64,000 bases of DNA from an uncultured Acidobacteriota bacterium (GCA_963836075.1 CAWIIB010000001.1:640001-704000), one strand, 5' to 3'; shown: positions 29,301 to 42,004, counted from the first letter of the stretch. The notes: generated by a model not told the origin, from the letters alone. Made by a program: numbers and translations.

Positions 29301-31590
29301 ATCATCCCGGTATCCCTCTCTCTCGGCGGCACCTTCACCGTGGTCCCCGGAGGCGGCGGTGATTTCGACACCCTCCGGGATGCGCTGGACAACGCCGTCC
29401 ACGGCGACACCATCCTGGTGGCCGCGGGCACATACAGCGGCCCCGAGAACAGGGACCTCGACTTCGGTGGCATCGACGTGTCACTGGTCTCGATCGACGG
29501 TCCGGAGAAGACGATCATCGACTGCCAGGGCGACGGGCGGGCGTTCCACTTCCAGGGCGGCGAGAGCCGGGCAGCCACGGTGTCCGGCTTCACCATCACC
29601 GACGGTTCGGCCAAGAACGGCGGTGGGGCGATGCTCTTCGCGGTGCCGCCTCCCCGACGGTCACCAACTGCCGCTTCGTGGCCAACGCGGCCCAGATATC
29701 CGGGGGCGCGGCGTTTAGTGCCGGCACGATTCCTCCCCGCTCTTCCTCCGCAAAACCTTCCGCGAAAACCAGGCGGTGGAACGGGGCGGCGGAATGAACG
29801 TCATCGCATTTCAGTTCCGCCGAGCTTGTGGAAAACACGTTCGAGAGCAATGCACCGTGGAATATGGCGGTGGGATCTATGTCAGTTCCGACACGCCGGT
29901 CGTCATCCGCGGCAACAGCTTCGAAGGGAACAGCTGCACCGACCAGTGGAACAGCAGTCTTCGGGGGCGGGGTCTGCGTCGTCTGGCAGACCCTGGAGGA
30001 CAACATCTTCACCGGCAACATGGGCCCACCACGGCGGCGGGCTCTGGGGCTACCACTGCGAGTTGATCAACAACCTCTTCACCGGCAACCACGCGCTGCA
30101 AAAGGGCGGCGGGGCCTTCTTCGAGACGGCGGGGTGGTCCTGTCCACCACCATCGCCGGGAACACCGCCGGCACCCGGGGCGGCGGCCTCTTCCTCGCCC
30201 AGACCGGGACCTGCCGGATCAGCAACAGCATCCTCTGGGGCAACCAGTCGCTTTACGACCATGAGATCTGTCTCGGTTTTCCGGAGGACACCACGCTGAC
30301 CTTCGATTATTCCGACGTCGAGACGACCGGCGACTGGATCAGCGACGACGCCGATTTGACCTGGGGCAAGGGGAACCTGGAGACGGACCCGCTCTTTGTG
30401 CAGGGCCAGCTGGGCAGCCACCTGCTGAGCCAGGCGGCCGCCGGGCAAAGCGTCACCAGCCCCTGCGTAAACGCCGGTAACCCGATGAGCGAATGATTGA
30501 CGGCACCACCCGCACCGACGGTGTTCCTGACGCCGGCATCCTCGACATCGGCTTTCACCACCCGGCCGGCACACCGCCGCCACCATACAGCGCGCTGATC
30601 ACCGGCCCCGGGCCGGCACCGGCAACCCGCCGCTGGTGCGGGTCTTCCCGGCGGAACAGGACGCCTCCTACGATTATGAATTCCCGGCATACGGCGCCAC
30701 CGAATACGGCGTCAACGTGGCCGCCGGTGATGTGAGCGGAGAATGGTATCGATCCATCCTCACCGGCGCCGGCCCGGGCGAGATCTACGGTCCCCACGTG
30801 CGGGGCTTCCGGGTGGACGGCACTCCCCTGCCCGGCCTCAGCTTCATGGCCTACGGCACCAACAAGTATGGGGTCGAACGTGGCTGCCGGCGACTTGGAC
30901 AACGATGGATACGACGAGATCGTCACCGGCGCCGGACCGGGGGCGGTGTTCGGGCCTCACGTGCGCGGCTGGGACTACGACGGCACGCCGGGGGTTGCCC
31001 CGGTGCCCGGCGTATCCTACTTCGCCTACGGCACGCTCAAGTGGGGGGTCAATGTCGCCTGCGGCGACATCGACGGTGACGGCTATGACGAGATCGTCAC
31101 CGGCGCCGGCCCGGGTGCCGTGTTCGGTCCCCACGTGCGGGGCTGGAACGTGGACGGCGGAGCGGCGGCGGCCATACCGGCGGTGAGTTTCATGGCCTAC
31201 GGAACGAACCGGTTCGGTGTCCGCGTCACCTGCGGCGACGTGGACGGCGACGGCATTGACGAGATCGTCACCGGCCCCGGCCCCGGCACGATCTTCGGCA
31301 CCCATATCCGCGGCTGGAACTACGACGGCGGAGTGCTGGCTGAAATCCCGGGGATCAACTTCTTTGCCTGGGCCCACAGCCTGGCCAGCTACGGGGCCAA
31401 CGTCTGGGCCGGCACCGACCTCGACGGCGACGGCCGGGACGAACTGGTGGTGGGCTGCGGGCCCGATCCCGATGTGGGCACGCCGGTCAAGGCCTACCGC
31501 TACGACGGGAAGCAGGTCTCCCAGTGGTTCTCGCTGGAGGCGTTCGAGGGCATGACCCACGGCACCACCGTGGCGGCGGGGCGGTTCTGA
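26364..31590 (+). CDS. Giant secreted protein: three beta-helix units with BACON-like spacers plus C-terminal FG-GAP-like module; many frameshifts (assembly error or pseudogene)
   Basis: Signal peptide; three starts of type 'GDxxTxQxxLxxAVxGDTxxVxxGTY'; GGG-rich PbH1-like repeats; three 'LSQxAAGQ..SPCxxAG..TTRTD..D(I/M)G(Y/F)H' motifs; terminal ORF 30868..31590 carries the propeller repeats. Confidence 0.7.
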
Positions 31591-35972: not shown

Positions 35973-36695
35973 GTGAGCAGACTGGACGCCCTGTTCTTCG
36001 ACATCGACGACACCCTCTTCTCCACCTCGGATTTTGCCGCCTCGGCGCGGCGGGCCAGCGTCCGGGCGATGATCGCGGCCGGCCTGCAGGCCGATGAGCA
36101 GCAATGCTTCAAGGAACTGTATGAGGTGATCCGCGAGTTCGGGCCCAACTTCCCGCGGCACTTCGAGAAGCTGCTGCTGCGCTACCCCGAGAAGAACCTC
36201 AGCGGCGTCAACCCGGCCATTATCAGCGCCTCCGGCGTGGTGGCCTACCACAAGACCAAGAACAGCGAACTGCGCCCCTACCCCGACGTGGTGGAAGCGT
36301 TCCAGGTGCTGAAGAGCCGCAATCTGCGCATCGGCATTATAACCGCCGGCCTGGCCGCCAAGCAGGCGGAGAAACTGGTGCGCCTCGACCTGCTGAAATA
36401 CATCGACCCCCACGCCATCTTCATCACCGACCAGCTGGGCATCGGCAAGCCGAACCCCAAGCTCTACCTCACCGCCTGCCGGTCCCTGGACCTCGAGACG
36501 TCCCGCTGCATGTATGTGGGAGACCGCCCGGTGGACGACATCGACCCCGCGGGGGAGGTGGGCATGGTGACGGTGCTCAACCGGCGGGTCAGCAAACCGA
36601 TCAGCCAGTCGGGCAAGCGGCTGCCCGACTACCAGATCTACAACTTCCACGATCTGCTGGATATTCTGCGTTCCGACTTCGGGCTGGATGACTAA
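35973..36695 (+). CDS. HAD-superfamily hydrolase
   Basis: FFDIDDTL, GIITAG, GKPNP, YVGDRPVDDI. Confidence 0.88.
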   Translation: MSRLDALFFDIDDTLFSTSDFAASARRASVRAMIAAGLQADEQQCFKELYEVIREFGPNFPRHFEKLLLRYPEKNLSGVNPAIISASGVVAYHKTKNSELRPYPDVVEAFQVLKSRNLRIGIITAGLAAKQAEKLVRLDLLKYIDPHAIFITDQLGIGKPNPKLYLTACRSLDLETSRCMYVGDRPVDDIDPAGEVGMVTVLNRRVSKPISQSGKRLPDYQIYNFHDLLDILRSDFGLDD

Positions 36696-38167
36696 GGTCT
36701 GCCGCTGGACGCCGGCGTGCTGCCGGCCAGCACGGCGCAGATGCTGTCCTGCAGCCGCTTGGCCTCGCTGTTGCCCAGCTTGTTCCCGTTCATCAGAATC
36801 GAGAAGGCCACCGGGCCCGCGTCCGGGTTGCCGGCCACGCCGCTGAGCGAGCTGACCCCGTTGATGAACCCGCTCTTGGCCCTGACCCGGCGCAGCGCGC
36901 TGCCGCCGGTCATCCGTTTCTTCAGCGTGCCGTCCGCCCCGGCCACCGGCAGGGAGGAAAAGAACTCGGGTCCGATCTGGAAGTCATTCCAGGCGTGGCT
37001 GACCACTGCGGTGAGCAGCCGGGCGGTGACCCGGTTGTCCGGAGACAGCCCGGACGCGTCATCCAGCACCACCCCGGCCATCGGCAGCTGCTGATACCTG
37101 AGGTAGGAGTCCACCGCCAGCAACCCATTGGCGGTGGTCCCTGGTGCGCCAAGCATCTCGGCGCCGATGGTCTTGAGGATCATCTCTGCCGAGAAGTTGT
37201 TGGAGTATTTGTTCATCTCCACCAGCAGCCGGCCCAGCGACCGCGACTGGAAGGAGTAGATCTCCTCCGCGCCCTCCGGGACGGTTCCCAGGGAGGGCGG
37301 TCGGCCGAAGGAAATCCCCACCTCTTCGGCCACTTCCACGAACGAAGAGAGGAAATAACCGGCGGGGTCCTCAACGCTGCGCAGGGTCACCGACGTCGGG
37401 TGGTCAAGGGGGATCGCCCCGCCCACCACCACCTCGTTGCGGCCGTCCCGGTAGCGGCGGTCCACGGTAAGGGTCATCTTGCCCTTGCGGGTCACCGCGC
37501 GGTTCAGCACGGTGAAGAACCGGCTGAAGGGGTCGACGACCACCACCGGCGGCTGTCCGGAGCGCTCGGCCGGCCGGACGATCACGTTCACCGAGTTGAA
37601 GTTGCAGGAGAGGGCACCCACCGGCGCGGCAAAAGCGCGGTGGGCATAACTCGACTTCCACCGCCGGTTCCGTCCCTGGCGGTCGAAAAATGTGTCGTCC
37701 CCCACCAGGCCGCCGCGCACTTCGCGGATGCCGAGATTGCGCAACTGACGGGCCATGACCCAGAGGTTCTCGCAGACCAGGTCGGGCGCTCCCCTGCCCT
37801 GCACATGGAGATCTCCCTCCAGCACGCCGTTGCGGACCGGTCCGCCGGCGAAAAACGGTGTCTCGTAGACATAGTCGGGCTTGAGCGCCCAGAGCGCCGC
37901 GGCAGCGGTGACCAGCTTCATGTTCGACGCCGGGACCAACGAGTCATTGGCCGAGCGGGAGTAGAGCACCCGGCCGTCCACCAGGGAGACGGCGTGGAGG
38001 GCCACCTTCATCGAGGCCGGCCGGCGGCCGGCCAGCAGCTTGTCCAGCGCGGCCTCCATGGAACGGGATGGCGCCGTTTCCTTTGCCGCCAGCGGCAGCA
38101 GCATCATGAGCGCGGCCAGGGCCAGCGCCCCGCCGTAGCGCAGCAGTCGAGCGTAATTCCGGTTCAT
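36692..38167 (-). CDS. dacB: D-alanyl-D-alanine carboxypeptidase/endopeptidase (PBP4, S13)
   Basis: Signal peptide; PASNMK (SxxK), SNN, AKSG, DASGLS, SLPVAGADGTL. Confidence 0.93.
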   Translation of the reverse strand: MNRNYARLLRYGGALALAALMMLLPLAAKETAPSRSMEAALDKLLAGRRPASMKVALHAVSLVDGRVLYSRSANDSLVPASNMKLVTAAAALWALKPDYVYETPFFAGGPVRNGVLEGDLHVQGRGAPDLVCENLWVMARQLRNLGIREVRGGLVGDDTFFDRQGRNRRWKSSYAHRAFAAPVGALSCNFNSVNVIVRPAERSGQPPVVVVDPFSRFFTVLNRAVTRKGKMTLTVDRRYRDGRNEVVVGGAIPLDHPTSVTLRSVEDPAGYFLSSFVEVAEEVGISFGRPPSLGTVPEGAEEIYSFQSRSLGRLLVEMNKYSNNFSAEMILKTIGAEMLGAPGTTANGLLAVDSYLRYQQLPMAGVVLDDASGLSPDNRVTARLLTAVVSHAWNDFQIGPEFFSSLPVAGADGTLKKRMTGGSALRRVRAKSGFINGVSSLSGVAGNPDAGPVAFSILMNGNKLGNSEAKRLQDSICAVLAGSTPASSGRP

Positions 38168-38284
38168 TCCAATCCGCCTCGGTAGAGCTGTGGTGCGGCG
38201 GCCTTCCGCACAAGTCTGCCTGTGTTGGGGTTTATGCTTGTCTTTCAGCTTACCACAGGGCTCCACCATCGATCAAAAGCGTGC

Positions 38285-38325
38285 AAAAAGAAAAGGCGGG
38301 ACAACGGTTACCCCGTTGCCCCGCC
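38285..38325 (-). terminator. Rho-independent terminator downstream of the selenoprotein gene
   Basis: Minus strand GGCGGGGCAACGG-GGTAA-CCGTTGTCCCGCC-TTTTCTTTTT. Confidence 0.75.
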
Positions 38326-38350: not shown

Positions 38351-40090
38351 TCAGAACTGGCCCACCGCCAGATTCACACCGTGAGACACGTCCACCTGGG
38401 GACGATCGAAAGCGGTGAACTCGATGATCTGTTCGAGTTCGCTGCCGCCGTCGTAGTTGTAGCCCAGGACCCAGGCGTCGTAGTCCGCGCCGGGGCCGGC
38501 ACCAACCAGAATCTCGTCGATCCCGTCGCCATCGATGTCGCCGCAGGCCACGTTGCAGCCCCACTCGGTGTAATCGAAGGCAAAGAAGTTGATCGCACCG
38601 ATGGAGGTGGCGGCACCACCGTCAATGTTCCAGGCCCGCACGTGGGGGCCGAACACCGCGCCGGGGCCAGCGCCGGTGACGATCTCGGCAAAGCCGTCGC
38701 CGTCGATGTCGCCGCAGGCCACGTTCACACCGAATTTGTTCGAGCCGTAGGCCAGGAAGCTGACCCCGGGCGCCGGGGAGATACTGCTGTTGTCGTAGTT
38801 CCAGCCGCGCACGTGGGGTCCGTACACCGCGCCGGGTCCGGCGCCGGTGACGATCTCATCGAAGCCGTCTCCGTCGAAGTCACCGGCAGCCACGTTGACC
38901 CCCCACTTGGGCGTGCCGTAGGCGAAATAGCTCACCGCGCTGATCGAGGTTACCGTGCCGCTGCCGTCGTAGTTCCAGCCGCGCACGTGGGGACCGAACA
39001 CCGCACCGGGTCCGGCGCCGGTGATGATCTCGTCGTAGCCGTCACCATCCAGCTCTCCGGTGGCCACGTTGACCCCGTATTTCAGGGTGCCGTAGGCGAA
39101 GAAGTTCAGGCCGTCCAGCTGGTTACCGTCGTAGTCGAACCCACGTACCTGCGGGCCGAAAACCGCGCCGGGACCGGGACCGGTGAGAATGTCGTCGAAG
39201 GTGTCGCCATCGATATCGCCGGTGGCCACCGTGGTGCCGTAACGGTCGGGGCCGTAGGCCTGGACGGTCACATCGGCATACCAGCCGCCGTCAAGATGAT
39301 AGCCCACAGCCTGGTTGACGTTGTCCGGGCCCGGACCGGGTCCGGCGATGATCATCGTGCCCTTGCCGAGGAACTGAATGAACATGATCGCGTGGAGGTT
39401 GGCCTCGTTCCAGTCGCCGCCCACGGCCACCGAGCCGCTGACGTTCTGGATCTGGCCGGTTGATGTCGCGGTCAGCGTTTCCTGCCACACCGGGAAGGCC
39501 CGGGCCATGTGCGGCGAACGGTCGGCCGGTTCCTCGTAGACCACCACGTAGACCTGGCAGGGAGGCACACTGCCCAGGGCTTCGATGGTGCCGTTAACCG
39601 ATACCGTGCCGCCGGCAACGTTCATGTCCAGGGACATCTCCACCGGGCTGGCCTGGGTCAGGTGGTCCTGAACGATGGGCAGGTAGGCGTTGTACATCGA
39701 ACCGCTGGCCTGGCCGCCGACATACTGCCGGTGACCGTCAAACACCGCGGTGGGCGTGCCGCCCACGCTGTAATAGTTGTTCCGATCGCTGTGATGGTCA
39801 CATTCATAACCCGAGCCGTAATACATGAGGCAAACAAACTGATCGGGACCGTAATCCACCATCAGGTCTTCGAGCCCCCGCTCCGCGGAGGGACAGTACG
39901 CTCACCCATCTCGTGAGAAAAGCTCGGCCATCACCACACGGTTGCTGCCGTCGTTCGGCACCCCGTCCTTCACTGCCTGCAGAATCTCCTGGGTGTTCGC
40001 CGCCCAGACGGTGCCGGACATGGTGAACAGCAGAAGGGCGAGCGCACCGGCCACAGTGACCAGCCGTCGCACGTTTGTACGGGTCGACAT
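38351..40090 (-). CDS. Putative secreted selenoprotein: Omp28/thioredoxin-like domain (UxxC) plus FG-GAP-like propeller; Sec UGA at 39904-39902
   Basis: AGGAGG RBS before ATG 40090 and a signal peptide. ORFs 39902..40207 and 38351..39862 are in the same frame, separated only by TGA: VMAELFSRDG-TGA-AYCPSAERGLEDL. Downstream GTPT cis-Pro motif and WNEANLHAIMFIQ. Confidence 0.85.
39871..39904 (-). promoter_or_regulatory. Candidate bacterial SECIS element
   Basis: UGA GCGUACUGUC CCUCCGC-GGA-GCGGGGG CUCG: 7-bp stem with a G-starting apical loop 17 nt after the UGA. Confidence 0.6.
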
Positions 40091-40504
40091 TGCAGATCCT
40101 CCTTTTATCGAAGTTTTCAACTCGATTCCCACTGTTGCGGACGTTAAACGAACCGGGATCATAACACGCAAACCGTGTAATATGATCACCACTGTAATTA
40201 TAGACATTAATCGCCAAAAGGGAAAGCTAAACCTTTTAACGGACGTTATTTATCCATGATTAGCGTCCCAACGCCGGGATCATCCCCACCCCGTAAAGAC
40301 GCAGGTGAAAAAAATCACAATTGCTCTTCCATTTTGCACACGTTGTGGTAGACTTACGCCGATTTTCGCGAGCCGGCCGCGCCCCGGCGCGTTCCGGTTT
40401 CGTCGGGAACGGTAACCAACTGAATCCCGGCCAGTTGAACACCTGGTTCCCGCCGGCGGGAGGCCGAATGCTTCATCGCCGTTGCCGGGCAGCGAGCGCA
40501 GCAG

Positions 40505-40924
40505 ATGCACTTCGATTACGCCAACGTGCTGATCTTTGCGATCCTGGCCATGCTTTTTGTCGGCGGCGCACTCACCGTGGGCCGTCTCTTTCGACCCAAC
40601 AGGCCGAGCCTCGAAAAAAGCCGGACCTACGAGTGCGGCGAGATTCCCACCGGCTCGGCCTGGATCAATATGAACCCCAGGTTCTATCTCATCGCTCTCA
40701 TCTTTCTCATCTTTGACGTTGAAATCGCGTTCATCTTCCCCGTGGCCACCGTCTTCCGCCAGTTCCTCGAAACCGGGCAGGGACTTCTGGTGCTGGGGGA
40801 AATTCTCGTCTTCGTCCTGATTCTCTTCGCCGGCCTGATCTTTGTCTGGGGCCGCGGAGACCTGGAGTGGCTCAAGTCGATCCATCACGAGAACGACCCG
40901 GGAACCGCCGGAGAGGCCAAATAA
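40505..40924 (+). CDS. nuoA: NADH-quinone oxidoreductase subunit A
   Basis: [24 protein letters not shown]. Confidence 0.95.
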
Positions 40925-40934
40925 AAGAGAGAAC

Positions 40935-41414
40935 ATGGGCTACACACCGCTGAATCTTCCGTCAAACGTGATTACCACCAGGGTCGACGCCCTGCTCAAC
41001 TGGGGCCGGCTGAATTCGGTCTGGTACATGCTCTTCGGTCTGGCCTGCTGCGGCATCGAGCTGATGCAGACCGGCGGACCGCGGGCCGACCTGGACCGCT
41101 TCGGCGCCGTCTTCCGTTCCACACCCCGGCAGTCGGACCTGATGATCGTGGCCGGGACGGTGACCTACAAGATGGCCGAGCGGGTGCAGCGCCTCTACGA
41201 GCAGATGGCCGAACCGCGTTACGTCATCGCCATGGGCAGCTGCGCCAACTGCGGCGGCTGGCTGCAGAAGAGCTATGCGGTGGTGAAAGGCGTTGACCTG
41301 ATTATTCCCGTGGACATTTATCTTCCCGGCTGCCCCCCCCGCCCCGAGTCACTGACCGAGGGGATTCTGGAGCTGCAGAAGAGAATGCGCGGCGAGCATT
41401 TCATCACGAAATAA
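40935..41414 (+). CDS. nuoB: NADH-quinone oxidoreductase subunit B
   Basis: [27 protein letters not shown]. Confidence 0.96.
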
Positions 41415-41470
41415 CCCGGAGCGACGGCCGGGAGCGGGACACCGGCCCAGCGGGTCCCAGGTGGACGACG

Positions 41471-42004
41471 ATGACAGCTGAAGAGATCTACCGACACGCT
41501 CTGGAACGCATTCCCGCCGAAACTCTGGGCGAACTGGCCGCAGAGGCCGTTCAACCCTGGGTCATGACCACCCCGGACAACCTGATCGAACTGCTCCGAG
41601 TGCTGAAGGACGATCCGGCCCTGGCCTTTGACTGCCTCGACTGCTTGACCGTCACCGACATGCTGGACGACGGTCAGCTGGAACTGGTCTACCATCTTTA
41701 CTCCTATACCCACGAACACCTCTTCGTGGTCAAGACGCGTGTCGGCCGTGACGAGCCAGAAGCGCCTTCGGTCACCGGGCTCTGGCCCGCGGCCAACTGG
41801 TACGAACGGGAAGAGTACGACATGTTCGGTGTCCGCTTCACCGGGCATCCCAACATGACCAGGCTCTTCCTGCCCGACGAGTGGGTGGGGCACCCGATGC
41901 GTCTGGACTGGAAGGAGGGGGAGACCGCCCTGGGCATCCCCACCACCCGGCCCGACCCGCTGGTCAAAGTGGATGCCGAGACCGGAGGTGGCGCTGATGC
42001 CTGA
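41471..42004 (+). CDS. nuoC: NADH-quinone oxidoreductase subunit C
   Basis: ANWYEREEYDMFGVRFTGHP, GHPMR. Confidence 0.94.
   Translation: MTAEEIYRHALERIPAETLGELAAEAVQPWVMTTPDNLIELLRVLKDDPALAFDCLDCLTVTDMLDDGQLELVYHLYSYTHEHLFVVKTRVGRDEPEAPSVTGLWPAANWYEREEYDMFGVRFTGHPNMTRLFLPDEWVGHPMRLDWKEGETALGIPTTRPDPLVKVDAETGGGADA

Follow-up and report, generated by a model that had tools for sequence, protein, structure and literature searches.

The described selenoproteins closest to the gene reported here belong to GOS_C, a family that Zhang and Gladyshev (2008) presented as having a thioredoxin-like fold, a UxxC motif, 74 sequences with selenocysteine (Sec), 312 homologues with Cys, an element resembling a selenocysteine insertion sequence (SECIS) and no known function (PMC2398784). 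Table 1 of a 2026 review gives the NCBIfam model NF045500 ('Omp28-related selenoprotein') as 'Hypothetical protein GOS_C', with UxxC and one Sec (PMC13188914). DsbA-like, DsbG-like and thiol:disulfide interchange selenoproteins, as entered in that review, are likewise thioredoxin-fold UxxC proteins (PMC13188914), but they represent other thioredoxin-fold subfamilies and have no fused beta-sandwich or propeller. Among proteins with Cys, recombinant HBP35 of P. gingivalis was reported by Shoji et al. (2010) to reduce insulin faster than E. coli thioredoxin, and the C48S/C51S mutant was inactive (PMC2907840). Here we describe a related gene in a 64,000-nucleotide stretch of DNA from an uncultured Acidobacteriota bacterium (GCA_963836075.1 CAWIIB010000001.1:640001-704000; hereafter the window, with positions counted from its first letter). 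The gene lies on the minus strand, from 40090 to 38351, and is interrupted by one in-frame TGA.

Our results indicate that this is in all probability a real, unannotated selenoprotein gene. It is very likely a single gene for a 579-residue exported selenoprotein, in which the UGA at 39904-39902 is read as Sec and an HBP35/Omp28/GOS_C-type domain is joined to an FG-GAP propeller. Compared through the NF045500 model and the published family description, and not sequence by sequence, the protein resembles GOS_C in its thioredoxin-like fold, its single Sec in UxxC, its many Cys homologues and a candidate SECIS-like hairpin after the UGA. It differs from GOS_C and NF045500 in that model positions ~271-331, which appear to be immunoglobulin-like or similar to the C-terminal tail of type IX secretion system (T9SS) substrates, are unmatched here, and a 334-residue FG-GAP propeller is found instead. 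The protein is a distant GOS_C relative that the curated model misses and that has a different architecture, and its kind is already known. The novelty assumed in an earlier, sequence-only reading of this DNA does not hold, since this family dates from the 2008 prediction of GOS_C and has NF045500 as its curated model. The propeller fusion and the expansion to five to six copies in this Acidobacteriota genus are new variations; a literature search, with supplements outside its scope, returned no publication that deals with the propeller fusion, relates the family to HBP35 or treats Omp28 as a selenoprotein.

One reading frame and its Sec/Cys column

The frame starts with the ATG at 40090 and ends with the stop codon at 38353-38351. 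Translating its one interrupting TGA (39904-39902) as U gives 579 residues with U63, and the sole other TGA is the terminal codon. Under translation table 11, two open reading frames (ORFs) are listed in this same frame of the minus strand, 39902..40207 (101 residues) and 38351..39862 (503 residues); the 101-residue listing counts from an ATG further 5', and translation probably begins at ATG 40090. The sequence-only reading had described two same-frame ORFs split by one TGA, and this was confirmed. The context of U63 is ..ELFSRDG-U-AYCPSA.., and the motifs quoted in that reading (..NRVVMAELFSRDG-U-AYCPSAERGLEDL.., GTPT and WNEANLHAIMFIQ) are all present in the read-through translation. The strong AGGAGG ribosome-binding site that it assigned to the upstream part was also found, at 40103-40098. 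At the orthologous locus of a second genome of the genus (G002), the frame 5' of the aligned start is open for just 13 codons and holds no start codon. The features of the gene are:

40098..40103, minus strand: Shine-Dalgarno sequence AGGAGG, 7 nt 5' of the start codon, read from the sequence
40088..40090, minus strand: start codon ATG of the complete gene; in G002 and G001 the orthologues begin at the aligned Met
39902..39904, minus strand: in-frame TGA, predicted selenocysteine 63 and first residue of U-A-Y-C, from column conservation and alignment with HBP35 Cys48
39893..39895, minus strand: Cys66, putative resolving cysteine of UxxC, followed by invariant Pro67; invariant in alignment A1 and Cys in 140 of 150 representatives
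39875..39891, minus strand: SECIS-like hairpin with a 7-bp stem and a GGA loop, starting 10 nt after the UGA and overlapping the P-S-A-E-R-G codons
39860..39862, minus strand: internal ATG (Met77), the false start chosen by gene callers and the start of 8/8 public homologues
38351..38353, minus strand: true stop codon TGA, from the reading of the frame
38295..38325, minus strand: intrinsic terminator, a 13-bp stem followed by a T-run, computed

The column of the TGA is strongly conserved among homologues. The N-terminal 252 residues, searched against 41 genomes from the phylum, gave 22 matches in 8 genomes, and all 22 loci present either TGA (17) or Cys (5) in the Sec column, with the TGA exactly at the first position of U-x-x-C. 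Because the same TGA column recurs in 17 of these loci and the other five have Cys, the observation goes beyond chance. The Cys forms read C-Q-Y-C-P or C-G-Y-C-P (L035 and L036) and C-G-P-C or C-N-P-C (L037-L039). Two other genomes of the genus have orthologues with 85% and 77% identity, and the TGA is kept in both. Residues invariant in alignment A1 (18 rows) include a Glu preceding the motif, U/C, Cys, Pro, Ala, Gly and the Pro within G-x-P-T. When the sample was widened to 201 genomes of the phylum, 40 matches from 21 genomes were obtained, 21 of the matches with one TGA and 19 with none (one of these from genome G048, flagged unpublished), counts that refer to a TGA inside the match, its position in the column having been located in the first 22 loci.

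We also scanned across phyla, using one genome per species and patterns drawn only from the region 3' of the Sec column. This yielded 38 loci, of which 36 have TGA in the column, one has Cys (L084, Cloacimonadota) and one is cut by a contig end (L069). They come from Acidobacteriota (the window's genus), Fibrobacter/Fibrobacteraceae, Gemmatimonas, Latescibacterota, Krumholzibacteriia and Cloacimonadota. Removing seven G001/G002 loci already counted leaves 31 new ones (29 TGA, one Cys, one not assessable). Among 1.84 billion cluster representatives searched with a profile, 9,070 proteins matched at E<=1e-3, 2,775 at E<=1e-10 and 282 at E<=1e-30. In the best 150 representatives the Sec column holds Cys in 139 and Ser in two, Trp or Gly in none, and is absent from nine proteins that start just downstream of it, as expected of gene calls cut at a TGA. 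Whether homologues have Cys or TGA at this column was a check proposed in the sequence-only reading, and the outcome agrees with it in the 22 phylum loci as well as in these 139 representatives.

A word search identified eight close homologues of 502-516 residues, and the first residue of every one is the internal Met. Public annotation thus splits these genes, as the sequence-only reading had proposed for gene callers in general. Alternatively, the calls could be correct and the locus could hold two genes, one for an exported peptide of ~62 residues ending at the TGA and one for a cytoplasmic 503-residue FG-GAP protein starting at ATG 39862; all eight public calls treat the homologues in this way, and TGA does terminate in this organism, since the real stop of the gene is also a TGA. 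However, the 13 codons from the TGA to ATG 39862 encode the most conserved motif of the family (x-Y-C-P-S-A-x-x-G), which is kept across phyla, and no Shine-Dalgarno-like sequence was seen 5' of this ATG when the sequence was read. The downstream piece would lose strand 1 and the active site of the modelled thioredoxin fold together with the signal peptide, and Cys homologues are uninterrupted. We regard two separate genes as very unlikely. Consistent with a single gene, the 62 codons 5' of the TGA show ratios of nonsynonymous to synonymous substitution rates (dN/dS) of 0.36, 0.28 and 0.24 in three orthologue pairs, with zero indels.

Selenocysteine machinery and the hairpin after the UGA

The source genome (G000; 6.23 Mb in 10 contigs, 94.7% complete, 4.6% contamination) contains the genes whose presence the sequence-only reading had proposed to check, selA, selB, selC and selD: a tRNA-Sec (74.7 bits, gathering score 47; ARAGORN call tRNA-SeC(tca)), selA (562.8 bits), selB (365.7 bits) and two selD genes. 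tRNA-Sec, SelA, SelB and SelD all exceed curated cut-offs. The two selD genes (G000:C4:17381-18301, L018, and G000:C9:892330-893256, L019) carry one in-frame TGA each, which indicates that the organism makes a Sec-containing selenophosphate synthetase in two copies.

Bacterial SECIS elements are hairpins just 3' of the UGA with a G in the apical loop. The SECIS-like hairpin of our gene recurs among its paralogues: those of group B have the same hairpin as group A with a compensatory C-G to U-A change, and the other groups present 5-9-bp hairpins with G-rich loops at nearly the same place. The three orthologues differ by just 2-4 of 39 nt in the 13 codons after the UGA (39863-39901), and their synonymous sites are likewise conserved. 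This low divergence fits a double constraint by the protein motif and the RNA hairpin. The Cys form L084 of Cloacimonadota presents a hairpin in the same place as its Sec relatives L083 and L087, which may be the relic of a recent switch from Sec to Cys.

Protein architecture, paralogues and locus

The sequence-only reading had proposed an Omp28/thioredoxin-like UxxC domain fused to an FG-GAP propeller. Structural models made with AlphaFold2 (AF2), Foldseek searches, profile searches and the Pfam family PF01839 bear this out, with the first domain best described as Omp28/HBP35-like. Three regions were delimited:

40001..40090, minus strand: putative signal peptide, residues 1-30, with a basic n-region, a hydrophobic core and V-W-A then A-N as cleavage-type site
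39356..39946, minus strand: thioredoxin-fold plus beta-sandwich domain (HBP35/Omp28-like), residues ~49-245, from AF2, Foldseek and profile matches
38354..39355, minus strand: FG-GAP beta-propeller with calcium-binding loops, residues ~246-579, from Pfam, the AF2 strand pattern and Foldseek

Residues 1-30 look like a signal peptide of the Sec type (general secretory pathway) as far as sequence features tell. Residues 2-27 are helical in the full-length AF2 model; there is no lipobox, and the twin-Arg is not kept in orthologues. Export, the first half of the proposal of an exported and probably surface-displayed protein, agrees with these features. Surface display found no such backing, as the protein has neither a lipobox nor a T9SS tail, though relatives in other phyla carry a T9SS domain. 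The profile search gave no Por_Secre_tail or FlgD_ig match in this protein; a search for T9SS tails across the genome also gave none, and control genomes were equally silent, so this last result is uninformative.

Residues 49-253 were modelled with the 18-row alignment (predicted local distance difference test, pLDDT, 86.3; predicted template modelling score, pTM, 0.84) as a thioredoxin fold followed by a beta-sandwich. In domain numbering, the strands (E) and helices (H) are E5-11, H18-31, E37-43, H52-58, E66-69, E73-76 and H85-96, with the dyad at residues 15 and 18. This arrangement shows the beta-alpha-beta...beta-beta-alpha order of a thioredoxin fold, in which the dyad sits at the N-terminal end of helix 1 and a conserved Pro precedes strand 3; domain Pro65, in G-T-P-T, is invariant in A1. 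The best match of the domain in the PDB by Foldseek is HBP35 (5y1a; E 2.9e-7, TMq 0.76, 13% identity). Sequence profiles matched the MJ0307 thioredoxin 1fo5 (E 7.5e-6), 1nho (3.1e-5), HBP35 (1e-3) and the DUF1223 protein 2axo (7.3e-3).

In the profile alignment, Cys48 of HBP35, within E-x-F-T-x-x-W-C-G-Y-C-P, falls in the Sec column, and HBP35 is described as exported (PMC2907840). In contrast to our protein, HBP35 has Cys and not Sec, a T9SS C-terminal domain, surface display and hemin binding, and it has no propeller. Small archaeal MJ0307-type thioredoxins (1fo5, 1nho) and DUF1223 (2axo), which are the top sequence-profile matches in the PDB, align over the E-L-F-T-x-x-x-C-P-x-C-P-x-A block and the G-x-P-T cis-Pro region. 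Unlike our protein, they are cytoplasmic single-domain Cys proteins of 85 residues or, in the case of DUF1223, a protein of 270 residues, with no beta-sandwich and no propeller. The link to Omp28 is only transitive, because it is L035 and L036, Cys homologues with 31% and 26% identity to the domain, that pass the gathering score of the Pfam model PF11551, with 61.4 and 47.2 bits, and our protein does not. The lipoprotein Omp28 model NF033782 matches it with 24.5 bits, below cut-off, and by its sequence our protein differs from the Omp28 family in not being a lipoprotein.

The C-terminal region matches FG-GAP (PF01839) in five stretches with 74 bits (cut-off 22.1), and its translation contains five D-x-D-G-D-G/T loops of the calcium-binding type. 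The full-length AF2 model gives the propeller about six four-stranded blades. Integrin alpha propellers were retrieved by Foldseek (E 1.4e-6), and the listing also includes a Cu/Zn superoxide dismutase entry of D. radiodurans (9m59), an analogous case of a redox enzyme fused to a propeller.

Four further paralogues in the source genome carry a TGA in the same U-x-x-C-P column:

G000:C9:1999710-2000429: paralogue L042, TGA in the column, same propeller architecture
G000:C1:1061959-1062558: paralogue L025, TGA in the column
G000:C9:2706025-2706609: paralogue L024, TGA in the column
G000:C9:3141557-3142135: paralogue L050, TGA in the column

Apart from L042, two paralogues have an unnamed C-terminal domain of ~130 residues, and one, of 857 residues, has a large middle region and a propeller. 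The sister genomes G001 and G002 gave six matches each. One locus of G001 (L049, C267, ~31088-31369) is a short copy with a 196-residue frame, in which the Sec motif and ~60 domain residues lead straight into a short low-complexity stretch and the last propeller blade; this copy was probably left by a deletion or arose in assembly. Other relatives reveal a modular family. Proteins of 863-872 residues in Gemmatimonas, Krumholzibacteriia and others comprise a signal peptide, the Sec domain, five FG-GAP_3 repeats, UnbV_ASPIC and a T9SS tail. Cloacimonadota forms have PKD, a beta-helix and a T9SS tail, and in other Acidobacteriota forms the C-terminal domain is dockerin-like or unnamed. On NF045500, relatives from other phyla reach 41.8-84.7 bits.

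The gene at 40090..38351 is very probably a single monocistronic unit. Downstream on the same strand lies a gene for an S13-family D-Ala-D-Ala carboxypeptidase (36692-38269, minus strand), and on the other side is a divergent nuoA/nuoB/nuoC operon (40505-42004, plus strand), the nuoA/nuoB neighbourhood being kept at the orthologous G002 locus. A 245-nt contig of metatranscriptome run X19 is identical to 39905-40149, that is, the 5' leader and the first 62 codons, and ends one base before the TGA. It is a weak hint of transcription that may reflect carry-over of DNA, and proves neither transcription nor read-through.

Weight of the evidence and meaning of the finding

Several points weigh against a full-length exported selenoprotein. 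The case for selenium incorporation is built on indirect evidence, from sequence and genomes. NF045500 matches residues 49-241 with 53.1 bits (E 3.1e-14), far below its 200-bit cut-off, and PF11551 reaches 22.5 bits against a gathering score of 34.9. The signal peptide was assigned by eye from features of the sequence. The full-length AF2 model is weak (mean pLDDT 68.8, with the N-terminal domain below 50 in places), and because of this value the interdomain geometry is not interpretable. Public runs and the contigs of four runs gave no independent read or contig across the TGA: the best public run contains 0.30 of the words, and the contigs leave 39777-39900 uncovered.

This last point bears on the possibility that a Cys codon (TGC or TGT) was mutated or misread to TGA, which would make the locus a pseudogene or an assembly or sequencing error. 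The lack of a recovered contig or read bridging 39902-39904 favours such an error, as do the contig number, completeness and contamination of the assembly given above. However, the orthologues from two genomes of the genus, assembled independently, carry the same TGA, as do four more paralogues and 29 of the 31 additional loci in other phyla. Moreover, both flanks of the TGA are in frame and under purifying selection, and the Sec machinery is complete. We consider a pseudogene or an error extremely unlikely.

The RNA evidence is mixed. We scored hairpins by the best uninterrupted stem with a 3-6-nt loop, a start 18-28 nt from the U of the UGA and a G in the first two loop positions, a statistic chosen post hoc, after hairpins had been seen; the score here is 7 bp, reached by 0.3% of 1000 synonymous recodings. 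Of the Cys forms, L035 and L036 have no such hairpin, scoring 5 bp (53% of recodings) and 3 bp (99%). The Cys form L084 has an equally good 7-bp hairpin (0.3% of recodings), so that the hairpin alone does not discriminate Sec from Cys forms. The stability of the local RNA is not exceptional, with z -0.80 for a 96-nt fold relative to dinucleotide shuffles and z -0.38 for a 42-nt window relative to synonymous recodings, and 25 other loci gave mixed results. Rfam presented no match at gathering score in the whole window and only chance-level matches around the TGA.

This unexceptional thermodynamics, together with the lack of a known Rfam element, would agree with a UGA that is read through without Sec, by near-cognate suppression or an altered code, placing Trp, Cys or Gly at residue 63. 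Nevertheless, TGA serves as the ordinary stop of the same gene, followed by a terminator, and homologues have Cys, the usual counterpart of Sec, and never Trp or Gly in the 150 representatives. In addition, the genome has tRNA-Sec, SelA, SelB and SelD, with both SelD genes themselves containing a TGA. Such decoding is exceedingly improbable in our judgement, and the reading of this UGA as Sec is the one we favour.

Our analysis establishes how the gene is built, its Sec/Cys column, the Sec machinery, the fold and the homology, and from these we infer export, catalytic chemistry, substrate, electron donor and final location. With UGA 39904-39902 read as Sec, SelB and tRNA-Sec would decode it under the guidance of the hairpin starting 10 nt downstream. 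The protein would be exported and its signal peptide cleaved, leaving a mature form that consists of the thioredoxin-fold/beta-sandwich module, with Sec63-x-x-Cys66, and the C-terminal calcium-binding propeller. The selenolate of Sec63 would attack an extracytoplasmic substrate at a disulfide or at some other oxidised form of sulfur or selenium, and Cys66 would resolve the mixed selenosulfide. The propeller may supply target binding. The genome encodes a DsbD-type membrane protein (DsbD_TM, 195.9 bits; G000 C1:85472-86107), and a membrane reductase of this type could recycle the enzyme. Sec-containing DsbA-like and DsbG-like oxidoreductases are extracytoplasmic enzymes, and in the active sites of DsbC (CGYC), DsbG (CPYC) and glutaredoxin there is a sequence like the x-Y-C dipeptide. 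By analogy, this likeness hints that the protein is a reductase or an isomerase and not an oxidase.

A broader idea, which we put forward tentatively and think rather unlikely, is that the Sec-thioredoxin/beta-sandwich is a portable extracytoplasmic 'selenol warhead', fused to varied targeting modules (an FG-GAP propeller, an ASPIC/UnbV propeller with a T9SS tail, PKD with a beta-helix, a dockerin or an unnamed domain) and present in five to six copies in this genus. The proteins would then form an unrecognised class of substrate-targeted exported selenoenzymes. If true, the targets of these enzymes would be specific disulfides, polysulfides or metal(loid)s that are extracellular or periplasmic.

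The immediate consequence concerns annotation. Gene calls for this gene, its four paralogues and dozens of relatives from Acidobacteriota, Fibrobacterota, Gemmatimonadota, Latescibacterota, Krumholzibacteriia and Cloacimonadota give truncated proteins without a signal peptide because NF045500 does not reach these genes, and a broader model would recover them. This is a useful annotation fix and no new kind of biology, and the biological point is modest: GOS_C, a prediction of 2008 without a known function, forms the N-terminal module in large multidomain proteins that are probably exported, and by structure it is HBP35-like. This likeness gives the module a testable activity, namely disulfide reduction dependent on Sec63 and Cys66. 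Our results also suggest that the selenium demand of these sediment bacteria is partly extracytoplasmic.

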